DNA of 64,000 bases from Elusimicrobia bacterium GWB2_63_22. Lineage in GTDB: Bacteria > Elusimicrobiota > Elusimicrobia > Elusimicrobiales > UBA9959. Below the pieces are notes generated by a model that saw only the letters and a list, made by a program, of their open reading frames with translations, was not told the DNA's origin and searched no databases. The DNA is taken from contig MGUA01000012.1 in the NCBI GenBank assembly GCA_001799735.1, positions 97,108 through 161,107 on the forward strand, given 5' to 3'. A program made the position numbers and the translations under genes. Numbering within the stretch: position 1 is the stretch's first letter; every line of letters starts with the position of its first letter. Of the stretch, positions 12,385-54,649 are shown piece after piece.

Positions 12385-15300
12385 ATGAAACTGCTGCTTT
12401 CCATACTGCTGCTTATGCCCGGGTTCTGTTACGGAGCTGGCCTGCCGGAAGCCGACCGCTTTTTTGAAAAAGGACTTTACGAAGAAGCGCTGAAGATCTA
12501 CTCCTCGTCCGCCGCCGCCGCGGGGCCGGAGGCCCTGAAGGCCGCCTACCGCGCGGCCGAATGCGAAGCGCTGCTTTTCCGCTACGCCGAGGCTGCCGGG
12601 CGCCTGAACGCGCTTAAGCTGCCGCCGGACCCGCTCTGGCAGGGCCGCCTGCTCCTCCTGCGCGCCGGCGCCGGCGAGCAATTCCTCGCCCATTACGGCT
12701 ATTCGCTGCCGGCCGACGAGCAGAAGGGCACCCGGGACGTCACCAAGTTCACCAGGGCTCAGTGGGACAGGCTGATAGACGCCGATTACGCCTCCCTCTG
12801 GCCGCTGCGCCACGAGCTTCTCAAATACCCGCTCGCCAAACAGGGCTATTTCATCGGCCTGAAGGACGCCACGCTGGACTATACGCCCACCCTGTGGCAT
12901 TTCGCCGTGCTGCGTTGGGGCGAGCGCCTGCTGTCTTCCGTGGGCTACGTCGACACCCTGCCCGAGGCGGCCCTCTTCGTCGCGCCGGAGTATAGCCGCG
13001 ACTATTCTCCCTCCGCCTCTCCCGCCGAGCGCGCGGCCGCCTTGTTCGAATCGCTGGCGGCCGGCGAAGGCTTCGCCGCCGAGCATTGGCGCCTGCGCCG
13101 GCTGCTGATCGCCATAGAGCACAGCGGCGCCGTGCCCAGCCCAGTAGAGAAAACGGTGCGCGCGGCCGCGGAAGAAAAGGCGGTGCGCGCCGCCGCGCTG
13201 GCCACGCTGAAAGGCTGGGGCCGGACCTTTAAAACCCCGCTCGGCCGGGCCTGGGCGCTGCTGCGCGCCGCCTGGCTGCTCAACGAAGGAGAGGAATTTA
13301 AAGAAGCGGTGGACCTCTGCCTGAAGGCCGAGAAGGAGGCCCCCGGTTCCAACCCGGCGGCCCATTGCGCCGGGCTGCGCCTGAGCATTGAGACCCCCGA
13401 ACTGGCACTGATCCCTTCTTTCTCCCTGCCGCCCGGCAAGGGCGCCGTAAAGGTGCGGGCCCGCAACCTGCCCGAGGTGTATCTCCGTGCCTACCGCACC
13501 ACGCCGGAGGAGCTGGCCTCCCTGTCCAGGGACCGGGGCAACGGCTGGGGCGCGCTGCGCTACCTGGGTGCCGAGGCCGCGCGCGCTTTCCTGGCGCGCA
13601 CGCCGGACCTGCGCTGGAGCGTCCGCCCGCAGTACCCCGCGCCGTACCAGCGCCGGGAGCAGGCGGCACCGCCGCCTCCGATGAAGAAGGGCGTCTACGT
13701 GGTGATCGCCTCCGGCGACTCCGGCTTCGAGGACGGCTCCTCGCTGCTCAGCGCCGCCTCGGTGAATATCACCGACGTGCTGCTGATGGGCACCGCCGGC
13801 CTGGCCGGCGACCCCGAGGCTTTTCTCTACGATCCCGCGCTGCCCGCCCGGCAGTCTGGCGGGGACCTGTTCCGGCTTTACGCCGTGGACGCCGTGAGCG
13901 GCCGCCCTCTGGCCGGCGCCCCGATAGACGCCTACCTTAACAGGGCGCACGGCGACTGGGAGCGCGTGCCGCTGCGCACCGGGCCCGACGGCGCGGCCGG
14001 GCTGTCGGCGCCCCTGCGGCTGGCCTATCCCGCCCATCAGAGTTTCTCGCTGGACCCGCTGCTCGAGCACGCCGGCGCCTACGCCTACTGGGGCAATTAC
14101 GCTTCGGCTTCTTTCTCCCTGCCGCAGCCGGTGTCCCTCTTCCTGGAGACCGACAGGCCGGTCTACCGGCCGGGCCAGGAGGTGAAGTTCAAGGTTACGG
14201 CCCTGCTGCGCGAGCCGCGCGGCTACCGCGTCTACGACGGGAGAGAACAACTGGCCGTGACGGTGCGCGACGCCAACTGGCAGGAACTTTATTCAAAGAA
14301 ACTTCCGGTGACCGGCCTCGGCAGCGCCGCCGGCTCGTTCACGGTGCCGGCCGGCCGGCTGCTGGGCCGCTACACCGTTACGGCGACCCTGCGCGAGTAC
14401 GGCTATAACTTCAGCGGCTCGGCTACCTTCGGCGTGGAGGAGTACAAGCGCCCCGAGTTCGAGGTGCAGCTGGCCGCCGCGGAGAAGCCCTACCGCTACG
14501 GCGTCCCCGCCGAGATAACCGGCTCCGCTAAATATTATTTCGGCTCGCCGGTGCCCGGGGCCGCGGTGAAATATCGCGTGACCCGCCACCGCTATATCCC
14601 CTGGTACTGCTGGTACTGGCGCTGGTTCTACTCCGATACCGGCCCTGTGGAGGCCGCCGCGGGGGAGACTAAAACCGGCGACGACGGCAAGTTCTCCTTC
14701 AGCTTTACGCCCGCGCCCGAGAGCGGCGCCTACGCCGACTACCCGGCCGCCTATACGGTGGAGGTGGAGGCCCGGGACGCCGGCGGCAGGACCATAAAGG
14801 ACAGCCGTTCCTACCGCGCCGGCGCCAAGGCTTATGCTTTCGACGTGACGCCGGAGGCCGGCTTTTTTACTCCCGGCAAGCCGGCCGCCCTGAAGGCCCG
14901 CCTGATGGACCTCAACGACGCGCCGCAGGATGGCAGCGCGCGCTATTACGTCTATAAACTGGAAGGGGAGCCTGCCGAAGCCCCTGCCCGGTCCCGGCTG
15001 AGCCGGTATCTCTCTTTCGACCAGAACCCGTCGCTGGAACAGGCTTTCTCCAAAGTCCCCGACGGCCCGCTGGCCGACTCGGGGGAGATAAAGTTCTCCA
15101 AGGACGCGCCGGCCCGGCTGAACCTCAAAGCCCTGCCGCCGGGGGCCTACCGCCTGCGGCTGAAGGCCGGAGACCCGTGGGGCGGCGAGAGCGCCTCCGA
15201 GCTGGTAATAGTTTCCGCCGCCAGGGAGGCCGGCCGGAACAGGGCGCTTAAGCTGCCGCCGGTGGCACTGTTCGAGTACGGCTCGTATAAGCCCGGCGAG

Positions 15301-18300
15301 ACCGCCAGGGTGCTGATAGGCGCCTCCGCGCTGAAGGGAGCTAAATTCGTGGAGCTGACGGCCGGCGCTTTTGTGCTGGCGCGCGAAACCCTGGCCGAGG
15401 GCGGGCTTTCCGTCTACGGCGTTAAGGTGGGAGCGCAGCACGCCGGCGGTTTCGGCCTGCGCTGGCTGGGCGCCGGGGATTTTAAATTCTACTCCGCGGT
15501 GTCCGACGCCCGCGTGCCGCGCGACGACAGGGGGCTGTCGCTGGAGATGGACTATGCCAAGGTGCTGGCCCCCGGCCAGCGGGCCAACTGGGCGCTGAAA
15601 GCCAGGGACGCCGCCGGCCGGCCAGTTTCCGGCGAGGCGCTGGTAAAGATCTTCGACCGCTCGCTGGAGTACTACGCCGCCGACGCCGGCTTCTGGGGAG
15701 CTGTGCTCTACCCGGACCGGCGCACTTCCGGAGCCGGGCAGTCTTCCCTTTTTACACCGCACGCGCTGCAGCTGCCGGTAAAGGACAGGGTAGCGTCGCG
15801 CTACCGCGCTTTGCGCGCCGCGGTCTTGGCGGAAAACCTGCCGTCCCTGCGCCTCGCCCGGGCCGGTTACAGCGCCGGGGGCGGGGGCAGGATGTACGCC
15901 AAAGGCCTGATGATGGAGGCCGACGGGGCTTCCCTCTCCGGCGGCTTCGCCGCCAGGGAGAACAGCGTGGGCGCCGTACGCGGCTCCATGGCCAAGGCCA
16001 CGATGGCGGCCCCCGGCAGCCCGGCTGACGAGGTGCAGGAGCTGGGAGCGATCAGGGACACATCCTGGGCCCCGGAGCCCGAAGTGCAGGCCCGCAAGGA
16101 CTTCTCCGAGACCGCCTACTACGAACCCCAACTGAAGGTGCTTAACGGGGAGGGGAAATTCTCTTTCAAGATCCCCGAGCGGCTCACCGCCTGGAAAATA
16201 TCCTCGTACGTGCTGACGCGCAGCGCCGCGCGCGGCTCTTTCTCGGCCGAAACCGTAACGAAGAAAGACCTGATGGTCCGCCTCGACATCCCCCGCTTCT
16301 TCCGCGAGGGAGACCGCTCCCGCCTGACCGCGCTGGTCACCAACGACACGGCGGAGAACCTGGCCGGGGAAGTCACCCTGGCTATAACTCTCGACGGTGA
16401 GGACGCCGCCGGCAGGTTCAAGGCCGGCGAGGCCCGCCTGCCTTTCACGGTAAAGCCGCACGGCACCGCCTCCGTGTACTGGGAGATAGAGGCGCCGCGC
16501 GGCACGGCCGCCTACAAGGTGCGGGCGGTGGCCCGCTCCGGGCGGCTGGCCGACGCGCAGGAGAACGACCTGCCGGTGCTGCCGTCGCGCGAGCGCCTGA
16601 TCGCTTCCTCGGTGGCCGCGCTGGACGGCGCCGCCTCTAAAACTTTCCGGCTGGCCGAACTGGAGGCCGCCGACAGTTCGCGGGAGGTGGAGTCCCTGCA
16701 CCTGGAGGTGCAGCCGCAGCTTATCCTCACCGTGCTCAACAGCCTGCCCGCGCTGGTGCGCTATCCCTACGAGTGCACCGAGCAGCTGATGAACCGCTAC
16801 GTACCGCTGGCCATAGTGAACGGCTTCTACAACAAGTACCCGGCGCTGCGCGCCGCGGCCGCCAAGGTGCCCAGACGCACAACCCTTACCCCGGCGTGGG
16901 AGCGGGACAATCCCGTGCGCCTGATGGCGCTGATGGAAACACCCTGGGAGCAGGACTCCAAGGGGCGCAGTTCACGCCTGGACGCTACCGATATGCTGGA
17001 CCCGAAGCTGGTGGGAGGAGAGCGCGAGGCCGCCTTCGCCAAGCTGAAGACCTACCAGAACGCAGACGGCTCCTTCCCGTGGTTCCCCGGAGGGCGCCCC
17101 AGCCTCTACATGACCCTCTACGCGCTGGAGGGGCTGGCCGAGGCCTCGCGCTACGGCGTGGCTATACCGGAGGACATGGCCCGGCGCGCGCTGGCCTACG
17201 TTATCTCCGAGATCCCGGCCCACATGAAGGCGGACGAAGAGCATCTCTCCCTGTCCCTGTACGGGGCTTACGTGATCACCTCGTTCCCCAAAGCCTGGCC
17301 CGAAAGCCGGACGGCCCTGGCCTACGCCAAGAGCTGGGCCGACTACGCCGACAAGCATGCCGCCGCCCTGACGGCTTTCGGCAAGGCCTACGCGGCCTAT
17401 GTCTACCTGCGCCTCGGCGAGAAAGCCAAGGCCGGGAGCTACCTGGACCGCGCCATGGACGGGGCCCGCTCCGACGATATAGCCGGCGTGTACTGGACCC
17501 CGGAGAAGATCTCCTGGCTGTGGTATAACGACACGGTGGAAAAGCACGCCTTCATCCTGAGGACCCTGCTGGCGCTGCGGCCCGCCGACCCGAAGATCCC
17601 CGGGCTGGTGCGCTGGCTCCTCTTCAACCGCAAGGCCGGCGAGTGGAAGTCCACCAAGGCCTCGGCGGCGGCCATCTACTCGCTGCTCGACGTCATGAAG
17701 ACCAGGGGCGCCCTGGATAACCCCGACAGCTACGCGGTTAAATTCGGAAAAACCGACCAGGCGCTGGAACTGCAGCCTTTCGACTGGATAGGCAGCCCGC
17801 TGCGCTGGTCCAAGTACGGCGCCGAGACCGCCGAGAAAGGCGCCCTGCGGCCTTCCGTCTCCAAGCGAGGACCGGGCCTCGCCTTCGCGTCCTTTACCGG
17901 CATCTATACCACGGAAAAACCGGCGGAAGAATCTCCCGCCGGCATGATGAACGTGTCGCGCTCCTACTTCCTGCGCGAAAAAGACGGCAAAGGCTACTCC
18001 CTAAAGCCCTTGGCCTCCGGAGACACCGTGGCCGTGGGCGACCAGGTGGAAGTGCAGCTTACCGTCGCCACCCGCAGCCAGTTCGAGTACGTGCACCTCA
18101 AGGACCCCAAGCCGGCCGGCTTCGAGGCGGAGGAACTCAACAGCGGCTGGAAATGGGAACAGCTGTCCCGCTACGAGGAGCCGCGCGACTCGCTGACCAA
18201 CTTCTTCATGGAATGGCTGCCGCACGGCGAGTACGTGCTCAAATACCGCCTGCGCCCCACCGTCCCCGGCAAGTTCCGGCTCGGCGCCGCCGTAATGCAG

Positions 18301-18360
18301 TCCATGTACGCCCCCGAGTTCGCCGCCCACTCCGCCGGCATGCTCATCAACGTGAAGTAG
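12385..18360 (+). CDS. Bacterial alpha-2-macroglobulin family protein (thioester-containing, 1991 aa)
   Basis: Signal peptide MKLLLSILLLMPGFCYGA. ~450-aa helical/TPR-like N-terminal extension. Multiple macroglobulin-like beta domains (e.g. VSLFLETDRPVYRPGQEVKFKV). Thioester motif C-T-E-Q in YPYECTEQLMNRY. Alpha/alpha-toroid TED region and a C-terminal MG8-like domain. Confidence 0.9.
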   Translation: MKLLLSILLLMPGFCYGAGLPEADRFFEKGLYEEALKIYSSSAAAAGPEALKAAYRAAECEALLFRYAEAAGRLNALKLPPDPLWQGRLLLLRAGAGEQFLAHYGYSLPADEQKGTRDVTKFTRAQWDRLIDADYASLWPLRHELLKYPLAKQGYFIGLKDATLDYTPTLWHFAVLRWGERLLSSVGYVDTLPEAALFVAPEYSRDYSPSASPAERAAALFESLAAGEGFAAEHWRLRRLLIAIEHSGAVPSPVEKTVRAAAEEKAVRAAALATLKGWGRTFKTPLGRAWALLRAAWLLNEGEEFKEAVDLCLKAEKEAPGSNPAAHCAGLRLSIETPELALIPSFSLPPGKGAVKVRARNLPEVYLRAYRTTPEELASLSRDRGNGWGALRYLGAEAARAFLARTPDLRWSVRPQYPAPYQRREQAAPPPPMKKGVYVVIASGDSGFEDGSSLLSAASVNITDVLLMGTAGLAGDPEAFLYDPALPARQSGGDLFRLYAVDAVSGRPLAGAPIDAYLNRAHGDWERVPLRTGPDGAAGLSAPLRLAYPAHQSFSLDPLLEHAGAYAYWGNYASASFSLPQPVSLFLETDRPVYRPGQEVKFKVTALLREPRGYRVYDGREQLAVTVRDANWQELYSKKLPVTGLGSAAGSFTVPAGRLLGRYTVTATLREYGYNFSGSATFGVEEYKRPEFEVQLAAAEKPYRYGVPAEITGSAKYYFGSPVPGAAVKYRVTRHRYIPWYCWYWRWFYSDTGPVEAAAGETKTGDDGKFSFSFTPAPESGAYADYPAAYTVEVEARDAGGRTIKDSRSYRAGAKAYAFDVTPEAGFFTPGKPAALKARLMDLNDAPQDGSARYYVYKLEGEPAEAPARSRLSRYLSFDQNPSLEQAFSKVPDGPLADSGEIKFSKDAPARLNLKALPPGAYRLRLKAGDPWGGESASELVIVSAAREAGRNRALKLPPVALFEYGSYKPGETARVLIGASALKGAKFVELTAGAFVLARETLAEGGLSVYGVKVGAQHAGGFGLRWLGAGDFKFYSAVSDARVPRDDRGLSLEMDYAKVLAPGQRANWALKARDAAGRPVSGEALVKIFDRSLEYYAADAGFWGAVLYPDRRTSGAGQSSLFTPHALQLPVKDRVASRYRALRAAVLAENLPSLRLARAGYSAGGGGRMYAKGLMMEADGASLSGGFAARENSVGAVRGSMAKATMAAPGSPADEVQELGAIRDTSWAPEPEVQARKDFSETAYYEPQLKVLNGEGKFSFKIPERLTAWKISSYVLTRSAARGSFSAETVTKKDLMVRLDIPRFFREGDRSRLTALVTNDTAENLAGEVTLAITLDGEDAAGRFKAGEARLPFTVKPHGTASVYWEIEAPRGTAAYKVRAVARSGRLADAQENDLPVLPSRERLIASSVAALDGAASKTFRLAELEAADSSREVESLHLEVQPQLILTVLNSLPALVRYPYECTEQLMNRYVPLAIVNGFYNKYPALRAAAAKVPRRTTLTPAWERDNPVRLMALMETPWEQDSKGRSSRLDATDMLDPKLVGGEREAAFAKLKTYQNADGSFPWFPGGRPSLYMTLYALEGLAEASRYGVAIPEDMARRALAYVISEIPAHMKADEEHLSLSLYGAYVITSFPKAWPESRTALAYAKSWADYADKHAAALTAFGKAYAAYVYLRLGEKAKAGSYLDRAMDGARSDDIAGVYWTPEKISWLWYNDTVEKHAFILRTLLALRPADPKIPGLVRWLLFNRKAGEWKSTKASAAAIYSLLDVMKTRGALDNPDSYAVKFGKTDQALELQPFDWIGSPLRWSKYGAETAEKGALRPSVSKRGPGLAFASFTGIYTTEKPAEESPAGMMNVSRSYFLREKDGKGYSLKPLASGDTVAVGDQVEVQLTVATRSQFEYVHLKDPKPAGFEAEELNSGWKWEQLSRYEEPRDSLTNFFMEWLPHGEYVLKYRLRPTVPGKFRLGAAVMQSMYAPEFAAHSAGMLINVK
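16774..16785 (+). other. Thioester-forming CTEQ codons of the alpha-2-macroglobulin
   Basis: tgc acc gag cag, in frame with the start at 12385. CxEQ is the established thioester motif of A2M/C3 family proteins. Confidence 0.8.
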
Positions 18361-18505: not shown

Positions 18506-18841
18506 TTAAAAGCGGCGGAAGATGAAGGTGTTCTTGGAACCGAAAGAGAGGAATTTGAACAGCACGAAGAAGAGGGCGGCGCCGGCGAGCAGCAGCGGTA
18601 TGCCCAGGATGGCGCCGATCACCGTGGAGGTCAGCAGCGCCCCGGCCATCACCAGGCCCAGCGCCAGCAGCCCCACCCCGGCGGCGACCAGCATCTTGAG
18701 CCGCGTGAACAGCCCCGGCTTTTCGGGAGGGGGAAAACCCCGCCCCGGGCCCGGGCCGGCGGAACGGAAGCCGCCTTCGCCCGGGCGCACCAGCTCCGGC
18801 TCCACGCAGTCTTCGGTCACCGTCACGCGCCTGTCAGTCAT
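18506..18841 (-). CDS. Small hypothetical membrane protein (111 aa)
   Basis: I use the internal ATG at 18841 (MTDRRVTVTEDC...). The upstream part of the 205-aa track ORF runs antisense through the AT-rich promoter gap and into the start of the + strand gene at 18918. The C-terminal half contains two hydrophobic helices (MLVAAGVGLLALGLVMAGALL; GAILGIPLLLAGAALFFVLF). Confidence 0.5.
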   Translation of the reverse strand: MTDRRVTVTEDCVEPELVRPGEGGFRSAGPGPGRGFPPPEKPGLFTRLKMLVAAGVGLLALGLVMAGALLTSTVIGAILGIPLLLAGAALFFVLFKFLSFGSKNTFIFRRF

Positions 18842-18917: not shown

Positions 18918-19907
18918 ATGAACCTGAAAAAAATTACGCTGCGCCCGGCCCTCCTGCTGGCCGCCCTGCTGTATTGCCTGCCGGCCGAGGCGGCGCGCCC
19001 GGAGCCGGCCAACGCCCTCCTCGTCGTGCCCTCTGGCCAGGTAGTCTTCAATCCCAAGTTCCAGGAATTCATGGACGCCAGGGGCGCCCGCCTGCTGGAG
19101 TTCTTCCAGCCCAACGTTTTCATCGGCTACATCCCCCAGGGCATAGAGAAAGACCTGGAGCGCACCTTCGGGGCCCAGGTCTACCGCGGCAAGATAGACG
19201 ACTGGAGCTCCTTCGCCCGCTACGGCGAAAGGGCCGTGCTCGGAGTAAATTCCTGGAACAAGCGCTTCGTGGAGGACCCGCCGGAGGCCCCGCTGGTAGT
19301 CAGCTCCAGGGTGCAGAAGGCCGGCAAGAAGGGGGACTCCTTCCTGTTCACCTGGAACCAGGTCATGAAAGCCGCCTCCTACCGGCTGCAGATAAGCTCC
19401 TCACCGGATTTTTCCTACCCGCTGCTGGACACCCTGGTCGCGCGCAACAGCTACCGCCTGGTGCCGGCCTTCTGGCGGGACGGCGTGTACTACTGGCGCG
19501 TGGCAGGCCTCATGCGGCTAAACAGCGGCGAAACCCGCGACGGCGCTTTTTCCAAGCCCGCTCCCTTCGCCGTCTCCAACGGCGCCCGCCCCCGCGGCGC
19601 CAGGCTGGGCAAGCCGCCCGTGCCCCCGAGAGCAGCCGTCAAGGACCGGCCCCTGTCCTGGGCCTCGCCCGTGGCCTTCAAGTATTACCGCCTCCAGATC
19701 TCCGACGCCGCCGATTTCAGCTCGCCGCTGGTGGACGTCTTCACCGATACCTGCACCTACCGGCTTTACGGCCTGGGTTTCAGCCCCATGACCCCGTACT
19801 ACATGCGCGTCATGGGTTCGGACGGCGTTTCCGCCGGGGACTGGTCCGGGCCTTCCGAATTCACCCTGGAACCGCTGGAGAGCGAGGAGGCGGGAAAGAA
19901 CCGCTAG
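18918..19907 (+). CDS. Secreted hypothetical protein with two FN3-like 'YR' beta-sandwich domains
   Basis: Signal peptide MNLKKITLRPALLLAALLYCLPAEA. Two internal repeats (FLFTWNQVMKAASYRLQISSSPDFSYPLLDTLV...YYWRVAG and LSWASPVAFKYYRLQISDAADFSSPLVDVF...YYMRVMG). Its stop lies 3 nt before the next start. Confidence 0.7.
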   Translation: MNLKKITLRPALLLAALLYCLPAEAARPEPANALLVVPSGQVVFNPKFQEFMDARGARLLEFFQPNVFIGYIPQGIEKDLERTFGAQVYRGKIDDWSSFARYGERAVLGVNSWNKRFVEDPPEAPLVVSSRVQKAGKKGDSFLFTWNQVMKAASYRLQISSSPDFSYPLLDTLVARNSYRLVPAFWRDGVYYWRVAGLMRLNSGETRDGAFSKPAPFAVSNGARPRGARLGKPPVPPRAAVKDRPLSWASPVAFKYYRLQISDAADFSSPLVDVFTDTCTYRLYGLGFSPMTPYYMRVMGSDGVSAGDWSGPSEFTLEPLESEEAGKNR

Positions 19908-19910
19908 CCT

Positions 19911-22900
19911 ATGGGCAACAGCCGCTCCACACCTCCGCTTAACCCCTTCAGAGCCCTGTGCCTCTGCGCCCTGGCCGCCCTTGCCCTGCGCGGCGCAGCC
20001 TGGGCCGTGCCTGCCCACCCGCGGCCCATGCAGGCCGAACAGCCCGACGGCGCAAAGATCCCGGTCGCCCTGAAGGGCGACGAATACCACCACTGGCACG
20101 AGGACGCGGCGGGTTACACCATAATCAAGGACGCCGGCAGCAAAGCCTGGTTCTACGCCGAGAAGGACGCGGCGGGAACCTTGCGCCCCGGCGCGCACCG
20201 GGTAGGCGCCGCCGACCCTGAGAAACTGGGCATTAAAAAAAATCTGCGCGACGAGCGCCGGGTAAAAGCCGGCGCCGCCCGCCGCGCCAGGGCGGATTCG
20301 GTAAGGCGCAAACGGGCAGCGTCCGCGCCGTCGCGCGTCTCCTCCACGGTCTCCTCCGTCTCCGGCGCCAGCGCTCCGCCTTCCCGGGTCTATACCCCCA
20401 TAGCCAGCGGCACCATGAAGAACCTGGTGATCCTGGCCAGGTTCTCCGACACACCCAACATTTATTCCTCCGCCCTCATCAATAACCTTTTTAACACCGT
20501 GGGCTATTCTTACGACGGAGCCCTGGGCTCGGTGAAGGATTACTTCCAGGAAGTATCCTACGGCGGGCTTAACGTGGACTCCGTGGTTTCGGTCTGGGTC
20601 GACCTGCCTGGTACCGCGGCCTACTACGGAGCGAACGACGCTGAAGGCTGGGACCTGCGGCCGCAGCAGATGGTCATAGACGCCATAAATGCGCTGGATG
20701 CGGCCGGTTTTAATTTTGCCCAATGCGACGGCAATGGCGACGGATGGGTGGACGGCCTGACCATCATACACTCCGGCCGGGCCGAGGAGATGGGGGGTAA
20801 TGACCCGGATTATATCTGGTCCCATCAGTGGGAGCTGGATACGCCGCTGGTAAAAGACGGCGTCTCCATGCAGGTGTACCATACCGAGGCCGAGCAGCGC
20901 GGCTGGGACGCTTACGTCGATACTTGGGGCCTTGCCCGCATAGGCACCATCTGCCACGAGACCGGCCACTTCCTCGGTCTGCCTGACCTTTACGATACCG
21001 ACGGGGGCAGCAGCGGCCTGGGCGAGTTCTGCCTGATGTCCGGCGGTTCCTGGAACGGTCCCGACTATCCCGACGATTCCGGCGACGGCGCCTCGCCGGC
21101 GCACCCGAGCGCCTGGCCAAAGAAATATCTGGGCTGGGCTACGGCCACGCAGCTTACCACGGTAGGCACCAAGTTCCTCAACCGCATAGAGGACAACGCC
21201 TCCGCCCTCTACAAACTGCGCGACAGCGCCTTTCCGGCCAATGAATACTTCCTGGTGGAGAACCGGCAGGGCTACGGCTTCGACGCCTATCTGCCCGGCA
21301 TGGACCGCGGCCTGCTGATCTGGCACGTGGACGAGGGCCAGGACGGCAATACCGACCCCGCGCATTACCTGGTGGACCTGGAGGAGGCCAGCGGCGTGCA
21401 GCACCTGACTTCCGGAGAGAATGTGTACGGCAACGACCTGGACTATTACCGCGCCGGGAATAACGCTTTCAGCGACGCCAGCACGCCCAACAGCAGGAGC
21501 TACTCGGGTCTGGCCCTGAAGCTTGTCCTGGAAGGCGTGTCGCCTACCGGTTCCCCGATGAGTTTCGAGCTGGGCAGCACCGACACCTCGCCGCCTACGG
21601 CGCCCGGCGCCGTTAACGACGGCCTGACGCCCCCCGATATCAATAAGACCGGCTCCACCTCCCAGCTGTCGGCCAACTGGACCGCCTCCGGCGATCCCGA
21701 GACCGGCATTTCGGCCTACTACTACGCCATCGGCACCACGGCGGGCAGCGATAATTTTGTCGGCTGGACCACCAACGGCCTGGCCCTTTCCGTTACCCGC
21801 TCCGCCCTGGCCCTGGCCAACGGCACTACCTATTACTTCGGCGTTAAGGCCCTGAGCGGCGTGGGCGTTTTTTCTGCAGCGGCCTGGTCCAATGGCCAGT
21901 ACGTGGACCTTAATTCCCCGGCCGACGTCACCTACGTTAACGACGGCACCGGAGCCGACGTGGATTATGTCTCCTCCGAGGGCCGGCTTTACGCCAACTG
22001 GGGAGCCTCGCCTTCGCCGGGGATAGCCAGCTACTGGTACGCCATCGGCACCACGCCGGGGGGAACTAATAAGCTTGGCTGGACCACCGCCAATTTGAAC
22101 ACTTCGGTCGCCACCACCGGCCTGACCTTCCTGGAGGGGACTACCTATTACTTCTCGGTAAAGGCGCGCAACGCCTCCGGCTTCGACTCCTCGCCCGTCT
22201 CTTCCGACGGCCAGCTGGTGGACGTTACCAGCCCCACCGCCCGCATCCTTTACACCTCGGCCCAGCCGGCCAGGCCCGGCGCCTTCTCCGCCAAACTGGT
22301 GATCTCGGAGGTCAACCCCCTGTACGGCTCGCCGCAGCTGCGGCTGAGGACTTCCGGCGGCGTGTATGTTCCGCTGACGGTCAGCCACCTGATCTACTCC
22401 ACCTGGACGGTTTCGGCGAACCTGGAATCCTATCACTCCAGCGGCACGGCTACTTTCTCCCTCACCGTCGCCGACCAGGCGGGCAATAATTGCACGGGCA
22501 TCGCCCCCGGCGGGACTTTTTCCATCCAGACCTCGGTGTCCGGCACTTCGGGCGGGAGCATAGCCAATACCGACGGCATGGCGGTGGCCGTGCCGGCCGG
22601 CAGCTACGCGGGGGACCTGTTTATAACGGTTTCCACGGTGCCGGACTCGCGCGTCAGCTCCGCCGACTCCGCCTCTCCCGGTTCCTCCAAGCTGTTCACC
22701 TACGACCTGGCCCGGGAGTTCAGGGCGGTCAACGCCGCCGGCACGCCGGTCGCCGTCTTCTCGCACCCGCTGACCATAACCCTGGCCTATCCCGACGCCA
22801 ACGACGACGGCCGCATAGACGGGGACCTGGTGCGCGAAAGCCTGGCCTGGATCTATTACCTCGACGAAACCCTTGGCAGATGGACCCCCGTGCAGGGCGT

Positions 22901-23279
22901 CGTCAAGAACGCCTCCGCCAACACGCTTACCGCGCAGGTGCCGCATTTCTCCGTCTACTCGGTCAGGGCCGCGCCGGGCGCGGATGCCGGGCTGGGCGGG
23001 CTTAAGGCCTATCCCAACCCCGTCGACCTGCGCACGGTGCCGGCGCTGACCATAGCGGGCATTCCCGCCGACGCGGCCGACCCGCGCGTCTACATCTACA
23101 ACGAGGCGGCGGAACTGGTGCGCACGCTCTCGCCCGGCGACGGCCTGGACGCGCTGAACACCGCCTCCTGGGACGGCCGGCTTAAGAACGGCTCCCGGGC
23201 GGCTACCGGGCTGTACCTCTACCTGGTCCGGACCACGAATTACGGTAAAGGGAAGGGGAAGTTCTTCCTTATCTGGTGA
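19911..23279 (+). CDS. M6 (InhA-like) zinc metalloprotease with FN3-like repeats and C-terminal T9SS/FlgD-Ig-type sorting domain (1122 aa)
   Basis: Signal peptide. Catalytic context TICHETGHFLGLPDLYD (HExxH at 20955-20969), typical of M6 immune-inhibitor-A peptidases. Two ~95-aa FN3-like repeats (ISAYYYAIGTT.../IASYWYAIGTT...). C-terminal domain at 23001-23276. Confidence 0.85.
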   Translation: MGNSRSTPPLNPFRALCLCALAALALRGAAWAVPAHPRPMQAEQPDGAKIPVALKGDEYHHWHEDAAGYTIIKDAGSKAWFYAEKDAAGTLRPGAHRVGAADPEKLGIKKNLRDERRVKAGAARRARADSVRRKRAASAPSRVSSTVSSVSGASAPPSRVYTPIASGTMKNLVILARFSDTPNIYSSALINNLFNTVGYSYDGALGSVKDYFQEVSYGGLNVDSVVSVWVDLPGTAAYYGANDAEGWDLRPQQMVIDAINALDAAGFNFAQCDGNGDGWVDGLTIIHSGRAEEMGGNDPDYIWSHQWELDTPLVKDGVSMQVYHTEAEQRGWDAYVDTWGLARIGTICHETGHFLGLPDLYDTDGGSSGLGEFCLMSGGSWNGPDYPDDSGDGASPAHPSAWPKKYLGWATATQLTTVGTKFLNRIEDNASALYKLRDSAFPANEYFLVENRQGYGFDAYLPGMDRGLLIWHVDEGQDGNTDPAHYLVDLEEASGVQHLTSGENVYGNDLDYYRAGNNAFSDASTPNSRSYSGLALKLVLEGVSPTGSPMSFELGSTDTSPPTAPGAVNDGLTPPDINKTGSTSQLSANWTASGDPETGISAYYYAIGTTAGSDNFVGWTTNGLALSVTRSALALANGTTYYFGVKALSGVGVFSAAAWSNGQYVDLNSPADVTYVNDGTGADVDYVSSEGRLYANWGASPSPGIASYWYAIGTTPGGTNKLGWTTANLNTSVATTGLTFLEGTTYYFSVKARNASGFDSSPVSSDGQLVDVTSPTARILYTSAQPARPGAFSAKLVISEVNPLYGSPQLRLRTSGGVYVPLTVSHLIYSTWTVSANLESYHSSGTATFSLTVADQAGNNCTGIAPGGTFSIQTSVSGTSGGSIANTDGMAVAVPAGSYAGDLFITVSTVPDSRVSSADSASPGSSKLFTYDLAREFRAVNAAGTPVAVFSHPLTITLAYPDANDDGRIDGDLVRESLAWIYYLDETLGRWTPVQGVVKNASANTLTAQVPHFSVYSVRAAPGADAGLGGLKAYPNPVDLRTVPALTIAGIPADAADPRVYIYNEAAELVRTLSPGDGLDALNTASWDGRLKNGSRAATGLYLYLVRTTNYGKGKGKFFLIW
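23001..23276 (+). other. C-terminal sorting-type domain (T9SS type-A CTD / FlgD Ig-like pattern) of the M6 protease
   Basis: LKAYPNPVDL...RVYIYNEAAELVRTL...ASWDGRLKNGSRAATGLYLYLVRT...GKFFLIW. This is the AYPNP...IY...G..V..L...W.G...G...A.G.Y.Y pattern shared with the C-terminus of the 1568-aa protein (50755-51027). Confidence 0.65.
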
Positions 23280-24328
23280 TTATGAGACTCCTCGCGCCGC
23301 TGCTCCTCCTGACGCTGGCCGCGCCGCCCTTAACGGCGGAGACGGGGACTACCGCTTTGCCTTTCCTGAAGCTGGACGCCGGCGCGCGGGCGGCCGCCCT
23401 GGCCGGCGCGTACTGCGCCGCCGGGGACGACGCCCTGGCGGTTTTCTACAACCCCGCCGGCACGGCCCTGGCCGAGCGCAAGGAGATCCTGCTGGGGCAT
23501 AACGAGTGGCTGGGCGGGCTCAGGAACGAGACCGCGGCCTACGTGCATCCTTTCGAAAGCGGGCTCTCGGTCTTCGGCGGGGTCAACGCGCTTTTCAGCG
23601 GCGAGATGGATAAGTACGACGCGGCGGGCGCGGCCCGGGGCTCTTTCAGCTCCAGGGAAGGCGCGGCTTCGGCCGGAGCGTCGGCCCGGCTGGGGCGGGG
23701 GTACTACGGCGGGCTGGCGGTAAAGGGGCTTTACCAGTCGGCCGACGGGACGAGCGCCATGGCCTGGGCGGGAGACGCCGGCCTGCTGAAGACCCACGGC
23801 CGGTGGCGGCTGGGGCTTTCGGCCTCTAATTTCGGGGGGAGCATGAAACTAGGCTCCAAAGCCTTCTCCCTGCCGCTCATGCTGCGGGGCGGCGTTTCCG
23901 CCGAAGTTGTGGAGCATGTACGGCTCTCTGCCGACGCCGTGAAACCCGGAGAGGGAGTCCTGCAGGGGGCTTTCGGGGCGGAGGCCGAGCTGCCGGCCAA
24001 CCCGAAAGAAGCTTTCTACCTGCGCGCCGGCTACCGCACCGGGCGCGGAGCCAACTCCGGGCCGGGGTTGTCGGCCGGGCTGGGGTTCCGCAACGGGGAC
24101 CTGCGGCTGGATTACTCTTTCGTCCCCTACGGGGACCTTGGCGATTCGCACCGCATCACCGTAGCCGTGGGGTTCGGGAGCGTGCGCCTGGCACCGGAAG
24201 AAAAGAGGGCGTATAAAATAGTGGCCCCGCGCAAACCCGGCCAAAAGAAAGCGCCGCCGGCCCGGCGGCAGGAGAAACAGAAAAAGGCCGGGTCCGGGGG
24301 GAGCGAGCCGGTTTATTTTATGTGGTAG
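23276..24328 (+). CDS. PorV/PorQ-family (FadL-like) outer-membrane beta-barrel protein, copy 1
   Basis: Signal peptide MIMRLLAPLLLLTLAAPPLTA. N-terminal family motif ALPFLKLDAGARAAALAGAYCAAGDDALAVFYNPAG. Amphipathic beta-strand pattern. GTG start overlaps the protease stop (GTGA). Basic, low-complexity C-terminal tail. Confidence 0.7.
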   Translation: MIMRLLAPLLLLTLAAPPLTAETGTTALPFLKLDAGARAAALAGAYCAAGDDALAVFYNPAGTALAERKEILLGHNEWLGGLRNETAAYVHPFESGLSVFGGVNALFSGEMDKYDAAGAARGSFSSREGAASAGASARLGRGYYGGLAVKGLYQSADGTSAMAWAGDAGLLKTHGRWRLGLSASNFGGSMKLGSKAFSLPLMLRGGVSAEVVEHVRLSADAVKPGEGVLQGAFGAEAELPANPKEAFYLRAGYRTGRGANSGPGLSAGLGFRNGDLRLDYSFVPYGDLGDSHRITVAVGFGSVRLAPEEKRAYKIVAPRKPGQKKAPPARRQEKQKKAGSGGSEPVYFMW

Positions 24329-46323: not shown

Positions 46324-49300
46324 ATGGGCTGCATTAACCGGTTAAAACCTTATACACGCACCGCAAGGGGAATATTCCTCCTGGCGGCGCTGGTTTTTGC
46401 CTGTTTTGCCTCCGCGGGGGCGACCGGCTTTACCGGGAAGGTCACCGGGGAGGACGGCGTCACCCCCATAGCGGGGATTTCCGTGCAGGCGGTCGATCCT
46501 AACGGCGACGCCATATTGGCCTCGGCTGTCACGGCCGGGGACGGCACTTATTCCCTTACTTCCATCTCTCCCGGCACCTATCACCTCCAGGTCGACCCGC
46601 CCGGCTACTTCCCGAGCGTCCGCAGCAGCCATACCGTGGCCTCCGGCCAGGACCTGCAGGTGAATTTCGCGCTGCAGTGGAGCGGCGAGACCTGGCGCGA
46701 CACTTTCGCCACCGATACCTGGAGCGTCTTCATCTCGGCCGACAGGAAGAGCACCAACGGCAACGTGCTGCGCTTCGGCACGGTGTCCACCGGCGGCGGG
46801 GACTATGACAGCATCCGTAAAACGGCCGCCATCAGTTACGCGTTACACCCTTACGTGACCATCCGCAACAAGTACAAGGTCAACTCCGGCACCATGGGCA
46901 ACGTCAACTTTATCGTGGACACCATGGGAGACTGGAGCAACCGGCTGATCCTGGTTAACGATTATTCGGTGTCCTGGCCCTGGCAGGAGCGCACGTATAC
47001 CATAGGCGAGGATATGACCTGGGCCTCGTTCCTGCAGGGGGACGCGGCAGGCGACGTGGACCATTATTTCGACTACCTCATTTTCCATTCCGCGGACCGC
47101 GGCTACGTGGCGGGGCAGGTGAAGACCCCGGCCGGCACGCCCCTGCCGGACACCCGGGTGCAGCTGCTCAAGGGCTCGGCTGTCATAGGCGAGGCCCTTT
47201 CCGACGGGGCGGGCAATTATTCCATCTGGGCCGCCACCTCTACGGGGGGGTACACGGTATACGCCTCAACGGTCAACGGGGCGCAGTTCAGCCAGGCTTC
47301 GGTATCCATAGGCGGCCGCGTCCAGACCACGGTGAACGTCACGCTCGACCCTTTCCCGCCGGCGGCGGTTCCCGGGGTCAGGTTCACCGCGACGACCGGG
47401 AATTCCGCTGGTGTCGCCTGGGACGCTTACGGCTATGCCGGGTACTGGATCGCTTTTTCGTCTGATCCCGCTTTCGAGGTCTGGCACGCCAGCCAGGCTA
47501 TCACGGCGGGTTCTCCTACTACTTTGGGGGTTTACAGCCTGGAGCCCGACACCACTTACTACTTCAAGGTCAAAAGCGCCGACCTGGACGACAGCTATTA
47601 TTCGACCGCGGTCTCCTCCGCCACGCCGCCGGTGCTGCCGGGGGCCGTCTCCTTCTCCGCCGTCTATATAACCAGCGCCGTGCTGCAGTGGGCGGACGGG
47701 GGGAACCCGCCGGGGACCTGGTATCAGGTAGAATACGCCATAGACGAGGGCTTCGTCTCCAACCTGGGTTTCAGCAGCGGCACGGCCCTTTCGGCCACCT
47801 TCGGGGCGCTCAACCCCAACACCACCTATTATTTCGGAGTGCGGGCCCTGGGCTTCGGCGGGCAGGATACGGCGGCTACGGTCCCGGTCTCCACTATAAC
47901 TCTGGCCGCTCCTCCCGCGGGCGAGGCCTACGCGCTGGTCGCCTCCACCGGGCTTTCTGTCTTCTGGAGCAATAACGGCAACCCGGACGGCACCCGCTAC
48001 GAGATCACCGAGGCCACCGCAGCGGCTTTCGCTACGCTCAATTATTCCAGCGTCACCCCCGGCAATTACTTCGAGGCCGGGGGCCTCCTCCCCAATACCA
48101 CGTATTATTACCGGGCGGCCGCCCTGAACGGTTCAGGGCTGCGCTCGGCCGTAACCGAGTTCGCCCCGGTGGTCACGCTTTCCGCTGTGCCGCTGCCCAT
48201 CCCCAACCCGACCTGGTCCCTGGGCCTGGTCACAGGCACTTCGGTGGAGACGTTCTGGCTGGTGAACAACAACCCTAACTATACCGAGTATTACGTCGGC
48301 GTCAGCACGGACGTGAACTTCAACGGCCTGGACTACGGCCCCCTCGCCTGGTTCGCCGCGCCCTCCTACAACGTTACCGGCCTGGAGTCGGGCCTGACCT
48401 ACCATTTCAGGGTTAAAACCAGGGACGTCCTGAACCGGTCCAGCGCCTGGCTGTACCTGGGGACCGCCCAGACAGAGGCCGGGGCGGACAATACCCCGCC
48501 GTCGGTGAACGACCTGCAGGGGGGCGACGACGCCTGGCGCGGCGCCGCCGGCGGCGCCTACATGGTCCACTTCTCAGACCTCGGTTCCGGCCTGGACAAG
48601 TTCCAGGTGCAGGTGACCTCGGGGTTGTCGGCTAACGGGATAATCGTGCACGCCTGGGCCGACGCCGTGACCGGGATAAATGCCGCCGACTACGAGCAGG
48701 ACTGGGTGCTGCCCCAGGCGGTTTTCGAAACGATACTGGAGAACGTCACCAGCTACGTCTCCGTGAAAGCTTTCGACCTGGCCGGCAATTCCACCATTTA
48801 CCCCGACGCCTTCTATGTCAGGCGCGACACTACCCCGCCTACGATAACCAGTTACGCCTCTTCCCCGGCCGGCTGGCTGGCCGCCGACCCCGGGGCGGTC
48901 TTCGACGTGGATTTTGCCGACGCCCTCTCCGGCCTTGCGCAGGTGCTCTACAGCGCCAGCAACCAGCCGGCCCTGGCCGACGCCAACGTGCTGGGCTGGA
49001 CCCCGGTGGACGCCATAGTATCGAGCCCGTCGGTAACCGCGCTCTGGGGCGTTAACTTCGGCCTCCTGGCCGACGGCGCCAGCAATTATATCAGCGTCAA
49101 GGCCGTGGACGCGGCGGGAAATTATACCGTGCTCCAGGACGTGTTCCGTATCCTCAAGAACACGGTGGGCCCGGCCGTAGCCATAGCCGCCCCGCAGGCG
49201 GGCTACGTTTCCACCGCGGCCGTCCTGTCCGGTTCGGCTTCGGCGATGAACGAGGCCTCCCCGGTGGCCGGCAGCGAGGTGGCCATACAGGAACTGACCG

Positions 49301-51030
49301 GGAGCCAGTATTACGACGGAACGGCTTTCGCCTCCGGGGCCCCGGTCTGGCTGGCGGCCTCCGGCCTGGCCTCCTGGTCCTATAACGCCTCCACCGTGCC
49401 TTTTGCGGCCGGGACGCAGTATAAAGTTTACGCGCGGTCCCGGGACGTGAACTCTTTCGTGACGCCCATCCCTTATCCCAGCGTGACCTTCCAGCTGGAC
49501 CAGGACGCCCCGACCGTCTGGGTCTCCACCCCGGCCGTCGCCTCCCTTGTCTACGCCTTCGACGCCGTGGAGGGTACAGCCGCCGACACCGGCGGCGCCG
49601 GCCTGGCCAACGCGGAGGTGTACCTGATGCGCCTGGTGGACGGGCGGTGGTGGAACTTCCAGACCGACGCCTGGGGGGATGTGCCGGTCTCCAGCGCGGC
49701 GGCCCCGGGCGCCGCCTGGGCCTTCTCGCCCGGCCTGAAGCTGCGCGGCGGTCTGGTGCACGGCCAGCAATATTACGTCGGGGGCGCGGCCAGGGACGCG
49801 GCTTCCCCGGCCAACGTTTCGGCTTTCGGCTCGGCGGGCTCTACCTTTACCTGGGTGGACGCCTATGCGCCCGAGGCGGTAGCCCAGTTCGCCCCGTCCA
49901 CGGGCACGGCCCCGGGCCGCGTCAACCTGGCCTGGACCTTCCCCGGCGACGACGGCGGCGCCTTCCCGCTCACCTTCGGCCGCTACGCCGTGCAGTACTC
50001 CACCTACCCGGAGGCGGTGTTCAGCACGCAGGCGGCGCAGGTAATGATCTCCACGGGGCTGGTGCTCGCGGCCGCGCCCCAGGCCTACACCGTGGCCGGG
50101 CTAAACCCGGCCGCCACCTATTATTTCCGCCTGTGGACCGAGGACGACGCCGGCCTCTGGTCCGGCCCCTCGCCCCTGGCCTCCACGCTGTCCGGCGAGG
50201 CCCTCGACGACATGATCTCCGGCTCGGTGAAGAACCCGGCCGGGCAGGGCATTACCGGCGTCATGGTGGAGGCCATAACCAATAGCGGCCTCGTAGTCGC
50301 CTCGGTCTATACGCTCGACGACGGCTTCGGCTCCTTCACCCTGCCGGGGCTGCCCGACGGCCTCTACCGGGTGCAGGCCACCTGGCTCGAGGACGGGTTC
50401 TCCAGCTCCATCGCCAAGGACCAGATCCCGATGGGCTACGCCGACGCCAACTTCGAACTTTCCGTGGCCTACGAACTGGCCAGCGTGTCCGGCTCCGTGC
50501 CGGCCTCCGCGCCGTCCGCCCTGCGGCCTTCCGCCGCCGGGGCCGCGGGCGTACAGCTGTGGCAGGGCACGCGCCTGATAGCTTCCGCCTCGCCCGACGC
50601 CTCCGGCAGGTTCTCCATACGCAACCTGCTGCCGGGGAGCTACACGCTCAGGGCGGCCGGGACCGACGGCGTCTGGAAGAGTTTTACCATACAGCTGGCC
50701 GGCGGCGAGGACCTGCAGGTGACGCCGCTCGGCGCGCTGCTGCGCCAGGCTTCCGCCTACGCGTACCCGAACCCGGCGCGCGGCTTTGTGAAGTTCCGGC
50801 TTTATACCGAGGTCGCCCCGGTGCGGTTCAGCCTGGCGGTCTACTCTTTGGACGGTTCGCAGGTTAAAGCGGCGGAGGAGACTTTTAGCGGCACCGGCGT
50901 CAACGAGTACCTCTGGACTTTCACCGGCGGCCGGCCGGCCAGCGGGGTGTATTTCTACACGCTGCGGCTGAAGTACCCTTTCAGCGGGGAAACCGAAAGC
51001 GTCAGGGGTAAATTCGCGGTGATAAGGTGA
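46324..51030 (+). CDS. Giant secreted surface protein: CarboxypepD_reg-like + multiple FN3-like domains + T9SS/FlgD-Ig-type C-terminal domain (1568 aa)
   Basis: Signal peptide (GIFLLAALVFACFASAGA). N-terminal GKVTGEDGVTPIAGISVQAVDPNGD...GTYSLTSISPGTYHLQV (carboxypeptidase-regulatory-like). At least five FN3-like repeats ending in ...NTTYYF.V.A. More CarboxypepD_reg-like units near the C-terminus (GSVKNPAGQGITGVMVEA..., GSYTLRA). C-terminal domain at 50755-51027. Confidence 0.85.
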   Translation: MGCINRLKPYTRTARGIFLLAALVFACFASAGATGFTGKVTGEDGVTPIAGISVQAVDPNGDAILASAVTAGDGTYSLTSISPGTYHLQVDPPGYFPSVRSSHTVASGQDLQVNFALQWSGETWRDTFATDTWSVFISADRKSTNGNVLRFGTVSTGGGDYDSIRKTAAISYALHPYVTIRNKYKVNSGTMGNVNFIVDTMGDWSNRLILVNDYSVSWPWQERTYTIGEDMTWASFLQGDAAGDVDHYFDYLIFHSADRGYVAGQVKTPAGTPLPDTRVQLLKGSAVIGEALSDGAGNYSIWAATSTGGYTVYASTVNGAQFSQASVSIGGRVQTTVNVTLDPFPPAAVPGVRFTATTGNSAGVAWDAYGYAGYWIAFSSDPAFEVWHASQAITAGSPTTLGVYSLEPDTTYYFKVKSADLDDSYYSTAVSSATPPVLPGAVSFSAVYITSAVLQWADGGNPPGTWYQVEYAIDEGFVSNLGFSSGTALSATFGALNPNTTYYFGVRALGFGGQDTAATVPVSTITLAAPPAGEAYALVASTGLSVFWSNNGNPDGTRYEITEATAAAFATLNYSSVTPGNYFEAGGLLPNTTYYYRAAALNGSGLRSAVTEFAPVVTLSAVPLPIPNPTWSLGLVTGTSVETFWLVNNNPNYTEYYVGVSTDVNFNGLDYGPLAWFAAPSYNVTGLESGLTYHFRVKTRDVLNRSSAWLYLGTAQTEAGADNTPPSVNDLQGGDDAWRGAAGGAYMVHFSDLGSGLDKFQVQVTSGLSANGIIVHAWADAVTGINAADYEQDWVLPQAVFETILENVTSYVSVKAFDLAGNSTIYPDAFYVRRDTTPPTITSYASSPAGWLAADPGAVFDVDFADALSGLAQVLYSASNQPALADANVLGWTPVDAIVSSPSVTALWGVNFGLLADGASNYISVKAVDAAGNYTVLQDVFRILKNTVGPAVAIAAPQAGYVSTAAVLSGSASAMNEASPVAGSEVAIQELTGSQYYDGTAFASGAPVWLAASGLASWSYNASTVPFAAGTQYKVYARSRDVNSFVTPIPYPSVTFQLDQDAPTVWVSTPAVASLVYAFDAVEGTAADTGGAGLANAEVYLMRLVDGRWWNFQTDAWGDVPVSSAAAPGAAWAFSPGLKLRGGLVHGQQYYVGGAARDAASPANVSAFGSAGSTFTWVDAYAPEAVAQFAPSTGTAPGRVNLAWTFPGDDGGAFPLTFGRYAVQYSTYPEAVFSTQAAQVMISTGLVLAAAPQAYTVAGLNPAATYYFRLWTEDDAGLWSGPSPLASTLSGEALDDMISGSVKNPAGQGITGVMVEAITNSGLVVASVYTLDDGFGSFTLPGLPDGLYRVQATWLEDGFSSSIAKDQIPMGYADANFELSVAYELASVSGSVPASAPSALRPSAAGAAGVQLWQGTRLIASASPDASGRFSIRNLLPGSYTLRAAGTDGVWKSFTIQLAGGEDLQVTPLGALLRQASAYAYPNPARGFVKFRLYTEVAPVRFSLAVYSLDGSQVKAAEETFSGTGVNEYLWTFTGGRPASGVYFYTLRLKYPFSGETESVRGKFAVIR
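50755..51027 (+). other. C-terminal sorting-type domain (T9SS type-A CTD / FlgD Ig-like pattern)
   Basis: AYAYPNPARGFVKFRLYTEVAPVRFSLAVYSLDGSQVKAAE...YLWTFTGGRPASGVYFYTLRL...GKFAVIR. Same pattern as 23001-23276. Confidence 0.65.
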
Positions 51031-54537: not shown

Positions 54538-54649
54538 CCCGGCCCGGGATCCCCGGGCCGGCGGTCGGCTTTGAAATAAGCGCAGGAGCCACGGCTGCCG
54601 CGCATATTTGAACGCACGACGGAGTCAGCTGTTTTACGGAGGCGGTCTT

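Follow-up and report, generated by a model that had tools for sequence, protein, structure and literature searches.

A conserved gene cassette in Elusimicrobiota pairs an M6 peptidase bearing a type-A-like sorting domain with a PorV/PorQ-family barrel of its own

In Bacteroidota, type IX secretion system (T9SS) cargos that carry a type-A C-terminal sorting domain (CTD) share one PorV shuttle, and only type-B cargos have private barrels, which belong to another family. The stretch of DNA analysed here (64 kb, referred to as the window) belongs to the groundwater metagenome-assembled genome of Elusimicrobia bacterium GWB2_63_22 and encodes in close succession a 329-aa secreted protein, an 1122-aa protease that ends in a CTD and a barrel resembling PorV and PorQ. 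It therefore raises the question of whether a barrel of this family can be dedicated to a single cargo and, if so, what the pair does. An earlier interpretation of the window, made from the letters alone (the sequence-only reading), held that PorV of Bacteroidota is not normally encoded cargo-by-cargo, which overlooks the known type-B CTD proteins that bind cognate PorP/SprF barrels (PMC9143113). Our analysis suggests that the three genes are a conserved cassette in which protease and barrel probably form a cognate carrier/anchor pair that would place the peptidase on the cell surface.

The three plus-strand open reading frames (ORFs) are found where that reading had placed them, at 18918-19907 (329 aa), 19911-23279 (1122 aa) and 23276-24328, and the motifs it quoted are all present, namely YRLQIS, HETGH, the AYPNP...WDG...GLYLYLV tail and the barrel signature. 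We regard all three as real genes because their GC content at third codon positions is 0.83-0.88, in a genome of 65% GC. The barrel is 100% identical to A2X31_07935 of GWB2_63_22, and the identical 1122-aa protease occurs in the same gene order on seven public contigs. Genes 1 and 2 are separated by 3 nt (TAG cct ATG), as had been stated. The GTGA overlap proposed for genes 2 and 3 stands only in part: a GTG at 23276 does overlap the TGA, but an ATG at 23282, 2 nt past the stop of gene 2, is the likelier start. Since gene callers on six public contigs use this ATG, giving a protein of 348 aa, and the N-termini of the aligned orthologues agree with it, the junction is probably a 2-nt spacer rather than an overlap; an exact database look-up of the GTG-started barrel gave no match, the recorded form being ATG-started. 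The tight packing of the three genes holds whichever barrel start applies. A promoter and terminator scan returned nothing exceeding shuffled expectation.

In the cargo (19911-23279, plus strand) a signal peptide is followed by a zinc metalloprotease head of the M6 (InhA-like) family, an FN3-like stalk and, at the end, a type-A-like CTD. Its assignment to the M6 proteases is confirmed by TIGR03296 (211.3 bits, cut-off 110.8) and PF05547 Peptidase_M6 (86.5 bits, cut-off 22). Profile matches place the catalytic domain at aa 173-472 (20427-21326), and its HExxH is intact, as HETGH at aa 349 (20955-20969). On the NCBIfam model NF052323, 'T9SS-dependent M6-like inactivated metalloprotease', the protein scores 87 bits against a cut-off of 600. 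BLASTP comparison with two related loci, L011 and L018, delimits a conserved stalk with two FN3-like repeats (aa 558-1021; 21582-22973), which is followed by the CTD (aa 1022-1122; 22974-23276), a beta-sandwich of the T9SS type-A/FlgD_ig kind ending in ...GKGKFFLIW. The claim that this is a T9SS-type domain is supported by FlgD_ig, which matches the isolated tail, and by a profile of the orthologous tails, which in the PDB matches the CTDs of PorZ (5m11_A, 2.8e-5) and PorU (6za2_A, 2.3e-4) and FlgD. In hhalign this profile reaches 98.9% probability against another barrel-coupled CTD class (A8), and the window CTD matches our in-house CTD hidden Markov model (HMM) with an E-value of 4e-24. Judged by profile, homology to the type-A T9SS sorting domains is clear, and the closest resemblance of the domain is to the CTDs that PorZ and PorU retain.

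The third product (348 aa; 23282-24328, plus strand, or from the alternative GTG at 23276) is composed of a signal peptide, an N-terminal plug and 14 strands. Its assignment to the PorV/PorQ barrels is supported by 134.6 bits on NF033709 (cut-off 90), in an alignment spanning aa 25-300 and the full model, and the barrel also passes Pfam PorV (27.8 bits, cut-off 27) and Pfam UPF0164 (24.8 bits, cut-off 21.4). The signature GARAAALAGAY..GDDALAVFYNPAG is present, and the conserved GARAAA...FYNPAG motif lies in the plug. At E<=0.01, NCBIfam and Pfam gave only PorV/PorQ-type models, with no match to PorP/SprF; the match to the NCBIfam 'putative type IX sorting system protein PorV2' (NF052325) is far under its cut-off. 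The AlphaFold2 model (predicted local distance difference test (pLDDT) 85.2, predicted template modelling score 0.80) has 14 long strands and short N-terminal helices. Its best Foldseek matches are Flavobacterium johnsoniae PorV chains from SprA complexes (8gl6_F, E 6e-12, TM 0.67, and 6h3i_F; TM 0.66-0.67), followed by FadL and TodX.

Past its last strand the barrel bears a tail of ~50 aa rich in K, R, P and E (24176-24325, ending ...VYFMW), delimited by alignment, which is modelled at low confidence (pLDDT 43-57) and is confined to the cassette class of the window. Cognate barrels whose stop-to-stop frame closes at the tail all end in ...W, as do the cargos of the class. This lysine-rich, disordered tail and the end of the cargo (23250-23276, ...GKFFLIW) look alike; the two C-termini are kept together across orthologues, and neither is found in other cassette classes. 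Three distant relatives of the barrel (P0104, P0110 and P0112, 476-573 aa) are fused to TPR repeats.

Adjacency among orthologues alone is weak evidence of coupling, and the case for it rests on many independent paralogous cassettes. A scan with the barrel alignment was made over one genome per GTDB species, and the best 80 of at least 492 matches were kept; these 80 genomes are mostly Elusimicrobiota, the others being Aerophobetes, Firestonebacteria, Hydrogenedentota, Poribacteria, Sumerlaeota, Zixibacteria and Ignavibacteria. They hold 83 barrels, of which four lie at a contig edge, leaving 79 that can be assessed. A CTD-ending ORF lies on the same strand within 400 nt upstream in 65/79, for which the chance is ~1e-59 against a base rate, set generously at 7.4%, of CTD genes across the same 1.04 Mb. 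The in-house HMM had been built from the scanned tails themselves, and the tails were hence checked with curated models: among 79 tails adjacent to or near barrels, 72 match TIGR04183, 67 the PorZ C-terminus, 66 the PorU C-terminus and 36 the C-terminus of NF052323 (best E 1e-20), whereas a type-B CTD model is touched by 5/79, as against 72/79 for type A. Ascertainment in the reverse direction gave a similar picture, in that 59 metagenome loci were found through one CTD class and the barrel directly follows the CTD gene in 48 of the 57 that are assessable, the nine exceptions being the most distant matches. One barrel per cargo proves to be the rule for tagged proteins in Elusimicrobiota and several little-studied phyla. 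The proposal that the window barrel is coupled to one cargo is thus upheld by adjacency kept in orthologues together with many distant paralogous cassettes across phyla.

It is also backed by co-diversification of the two partners. CTD and barrel distances are correlated with a Mantel r of 0.77 over all pairs and 0.74 without close orthologues, values reached in 0/2000 permutations, although r includes shared ancestry and shows co-inheritance, not necessarily co-adaptation. Classes of tail pair with classes of barrel: cargos ending ...FFIVW occur with barrels ending ...YFMW, those ending ...KIAVER make up another class that has a barrel type to itself, and those ending ...KLAIIH pair with barrels that mostly bear an extension of ~130 aa. 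Several such classes coexist within one genome. As to the arrangement of individual loci, L033, L061 and L064 have two or three tandem CTD genes before one barrel, or two full cassettes per contig. The Ignavibacteria and Zixibacteria barrels (L066, 9977-10921, and L068, 2136-3089) score 210 and 178 bits on the PorQ model (cut-off 220) and have no adjacent CTD gene; there the gene order, which is conserved, is hutI, a small ORF and the PorQ-like barrel, and the idea of an 'LptE-like' gene upstream was dropped as it had no family match.

Barrel-coupled cargos include FN3, PQQ/BamB-like and Kelch propeller, lectin-like, S8, C1, M6, NHL and beta-helix proteins, with lengths up to 3312 aa and folded beta-rich domains. 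Among the orthologues of the window cassette, the 329-aa protein, stalk, CTD and barrel are all conserved and the catalytic head varies: the window shares an M6 head with L012, L014 and L020, papain C1 plus lectin-like heads occur in L010, L011, L019 and L030, and HExxH zincin heads without a Pfam family in L013, L017, L018, L021 and L022. In BLASTP the window cargo is 64% identical to that of L011 from aa 558 to the end, with nil before, and 53% identical to that of L018 from aa 665. The junction of head exchange is sharp and lies just before the stalk (...DTSPPTAPGAV...), the variable part being nt 19911-21581. Because the cargos are so diverse and heads are swapped at a sharp junction, the coupling tracks the CTD and not the enzyme.

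In addition to the shared ancestry contained in the Mantel coefficient, several observations weigh against a cognate carrier/anchor pair. The barrel falls below both equivalog cut-offs, that of PorQ (NF033711, 110.9 against 220 bits) and that of PorV (NF033710, 40.7 against 250), and function is therefore transferred by family, not by orthology. The window cargo tail has no TIGR04183 match at E<=0.01, and it reaches the FlgD_ig cut-off (27 bits) only if scanned alone (31 bits; 26.3 in the full protein). Among the assessable barrels, 14 have no CTD gene within 400 nt upstream, three of them having one at 475-663 nt, and about half of the CTD genes elsewhere in the flanks have no barrel to themselves. 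The flanks, too, are conserved within the orthologous group, so that adjacency there could be plain synteny. Lastly, in a second CTD/barrel region of the window, described below, two genes separate cargo from barrel.

How might such a cassette work? The analysis shows what the domains are, the fold, how closely the genes are coupled, that this coupling is general and that CTD and barrel co-diversify, and from these a mechanism can be proposed. All three products would be exported by Sec, as suggested by the signal peptides visible in their sequences, and the cargo is modular, with a catalytic head that can be exchanged, an FN3-like stalk that is conserved and a beta-sandwich CTD of the type-A kind. 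Because the barrel leans towards PorQ and the cargo CTD is PorZ/PorU-like, we infer that the extracellular loops of the barrel would bind the CTD of whichever cargo is translated from the same mRNA, by analogy with PorV-CTD, PorZ-PorQ and PorU-PorV; extracellular PorV loops bind CTDs (PMC10994853), and PorV and PorQ hold PorU and PorZ, whose CTDs are retained, on the surface (PMC5562754). The barrel would then be the private carrier of its cargo and, if the CTD is retained, its non-covalent surface anchor. The surface location and CTD retention are, like the binding, argued from these analogies. Passage of the cargo across the outer membrane may be through a translocon of the SprA/Sov type whose gene lies elsewhere, or by another route.

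The same CTD-barrel binding is assumed if the barrels are instead class-specific shuttles of a canonical T9SS encoded elsewhere in the genome, in which the PorV/PorQ family has expanded. Each paralogue would dock on one SprA/Sov, and a PorU-type sortase would cleave the CTD and attach the cargo to a lipid, so that the difference from the carrier/anchor pair lies in the machinery and the final anchor. Consistent with such an expansion, the CTD and barrel families are T9SS families, in the solved complexes PorV functions only in concert with SprA (PMC10994853), and the relatives from FCB (Fibrobacterota, Chlorobiota and Bacteroidota) phyla, L066 and L068, have stand-alone, near-PorQ barrels, which is how a generic T9SS component would be expected to look. 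However, no core gene (porK/L/M/N, sov or porU/Z-like) is present within the 64-kb window, as the sequence-only reading had noted, and the papers that we consulted place T9SS in Bacteroidota or the FCB group only (PMC10515386, PMC12398890, PMC4793230). Our literature search found no paper linking T9SS to Elusimicrobia and, under the terms PorV2, PorV-like and PorQ-like, nothing on cargo-coupled PorV/PorQ barrels. Furthermore, a PorU- or PorZ-like N-terminal part is found in 0/62 barrel-coupled cargos. We consider an expanded canonical system rather unlikely on this balance.

Two other functions of the barrel were considered. It could, together with the beta-barrel assembly machinery, move the cargo itself in a two-partner or autotransporter-like (type V) manner, with the CTD as targeting element. 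That there is nearly one barrel per cargo (sometimes with a tandem CTD run before one), that the coupling looks translational, that pairs are found in phyla without a known T9SS and that no translocon gene is nearby all speak for a self-contained export device; yet the predicted barrel, with 14 strands and an N-terminal plug, is like FadL and PorV, it is without POTRA or Omp85 features, and the cargos, which are up to 3312 aa long, consist of folded beta-rich domains. To our knowledge, 14-strand plugged FadL-fold barrels are a carrier or anchor in every characterised case and never a translocon, and we know of no PorV/FadL-family protein that translocates proteins. Autonomous export by the barrel is accordingly very unlikely in our view. 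Alternatively, the barrel could take up hydrophobic or amphipathic products as a channel of the FadL type, its adjacency to the protease then reflecting only their co-regulation in nutrient acquisition: FadL and TodX are its next-best structural matches, it passes the threshold of UPF0164, a Treponema FadL-like family, and spirochaetes are known to have such barrels without T9SS. This appears most improbable, given that PorV matches the structure better than FadL, that adjacency tracks the CTD and not enzyme activity, many cargos being propellers, lectins and repeat proteins, that CTD and barrel classes co-diversify, and that the barrel stays while the head is exchanged.

A wider proposal can be made tentatively, and we regard it as doubtful at present: Elusimicrobiota and several other non-FCB phyla of the scan, namely Aerophobetes, Firestonebacteria, Hydrogenedentota and Sumerlaeota, may be without SprA/PorKLMN and may rely on autonomous, modular surface-display cassettes of CTD plus PorQ-like barrel, with class-specific recognition codes and freely exchanged heads. 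Should this be true, the cassettes would represent a route of their own for secretion or anchoring, or else the ancestral state behind the recruited PorZ-PorQ and PorU-PorV pairs.

The first gene of the cassette (18918-19907, plus strand) encodes a signal peptide, an alpha/beta domain at aa ~30-118 (19005-19271) and two FN3 domains (~19299-19583 and 19623-19877) with the 'YRLQIS...YYWRV' motifs, YRLQIS occurring twice, at aa 155 and aa 257. The special 'YR domain' read into these motifs is not supported, as the AlphaFold2 model (pLDDT 83.9) shows ordinary FN3 beta-sandwiches, with tandem FN3 proteins as its Foldseek matches (E about 1e-7). The protein has no match in Pfam or NCBIfam. It has 127 homologues, almost all ~330 aa long and from Elusimicrobia; all source-named full-length ones are from Elusimicrobia, and a homologue lies 5' of the cargo in 11 orthologous loci. 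A profile of the N-terminal domain gave no match in the PDB or Pfam; with that outcome, a protease propeptide (I9-like), which has a similar beta-alpha-beta-beta-alpha-beta order, is no more than a guess. The protein could serve as an escort or chaperone in the periplasm, or as an adaptor at the surface. Its distant homologues include FecR plus LysM proteins, which hints at an accessory role shared with the FecR protein of the second region.

Upstream and divergent from the cassette is a gene for a 111-aa protein (18506-18841, minus strand) whose N-terminal part is soluble and for which two transmembrane helices are predicted; the gene is called on all public contigs of the strain. It has no family match, and a homologue is found at the same position and orientation in nine orthologous loci. 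It is a probable fourth member of the cassette and may be a fourth component or a regulator. The designation of the locus as an accessory island is refuted because its neighbours are syntenic in relatives; GC is also flat across the region. The neighbours conserved in the orthologous group are an alpha-2-macroglobulin, the divergent 111-aa gene just described, a glycosyltransferase and a WD40 protein. The first of these, a bacterial alpha-2-macroglobulin of 1991 aa (12385-18360, plus strand; MG2, A2M and bMG10), lies directly upstream of the protease cassette, occurs at the same position in at least eight related genomes and may guard the periplasm against the cassette peptidase.

The second CTD/barrel region, at 46-54.5 kb, had been described as the same three-part arrangement, but this does not hold: the order there is CTD protein, 584-aa protein, FecR protein and barrel, all on the plus strand, with no homologue of the 329-aa protein, and the region is only loosely similar to the first. 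The CTD protein (46324-51030, 1568 aa) is a non-protease with four CarboxypepD_reg domains, fn3 and a type-A CTD (TIGR04183, 29.3 bits, cut-off 23; in-house HMM, E 7e-7). It is followed by the 584-aa protein, with a weak CARDB match (51044-52798), the FecR-domain protein (52825-53559, 244 aa) and a second PorV/PorQ-family barrel (53614-54537, 307 aa; NF033709, 161.6 bits). Directly 3' of this barrel is a fibre-like protein of 2707 aa (54608-62773, plus strand) with ...GDGSGLTNV... and YadA-like G-rich repeats and no Pfam, NCBIfam or CTD match. A role as SprA-like translocon was ruled out for it, as it is a repeat fibre with neither a family match nor a CTD.

What is new here is the occurrence of type-A-like CTDs and PorV/PorQ-family barrels as private, co-diversifying modular cassettes outside the FCB group, with many such cassettes per genome in a phylum without a described T9SS. 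Natural cognate classes are now available to compare for CTD-carrier specificity. The cassettes also raise the question of the origin of the attachment-complex pairs, and of whether CTD proteins can reach the surface without a SprA translocon and PorLM motor. That heads are swapped while stalk, CTD and barrel stay constant suggests a natural, portable scaffold for enzyme display on diderm cells.

Comparison with known systems shows where the window cassette stands. Its catalytic domain and HExxH are those of InhA (peptidase family M6), which is a Gram-positive secreted enzyme without CTD or barrel; unlike the inactivated metalloprotease of NF052323, it has an intact HETGH. The barrel shares its 14-strand plugged fold with FadL, TodX and Treponema UPF0164, which, in contrast, are small-molecule channels with no link to CTD proteins. 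Cargo-specific pairing with adjacent encoding is known from sprB-sprF of F. johnsoniae. As in the type-B pairs SprB-SprF and PG1035-PorP, where every cargo is anchored at the surface by binding a barrel specific to it (PMC9143113), the window cargo has a barrel to itself, but this barrel is of the PorV/PorQ and not the PorP/SprF family, and the surveyed tails mostly match the type-A and not the type-B model. F. johnsoniae PorV is the best structural match to the barrel and the model for loop-CTD binding (PMC10994853; 6h3i, 8gl6); there, however, a single PorV is shared by all type-A cargos and is encoded apart, with SprA as its known partner, whereas the window-type barrels are private to a cargo or class and no such partner is known for the window organism. 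The closest parallel is to the PorZ-PorQ and PorU-PorV pairs in the T9SS attachment complex of Porphyromonas gingivalis (PMC5562754). The window pair differs from them in being encoded in one cassette, with several cassettes per genome, many kinds of cargo and a different phylum, Elusimicrobiota; in heads that are not PorU- or PorZ-like and a barrel that misses both equivalog cut-offs; and in implying no attachment-complex role such as sortase or anionic lipopolysaccharide (A-LPS) delivery. In both, nevertheless, a surface protein with a type-A-like CTD is, or in the window would be, held by a barrel of the PorV/PorQ family; the PorQ model gives the window barrel more bits than the PorV model does, the CTD profile matches PorZ and PorU, and PorU, like the window cargo, is itself a peptidase.

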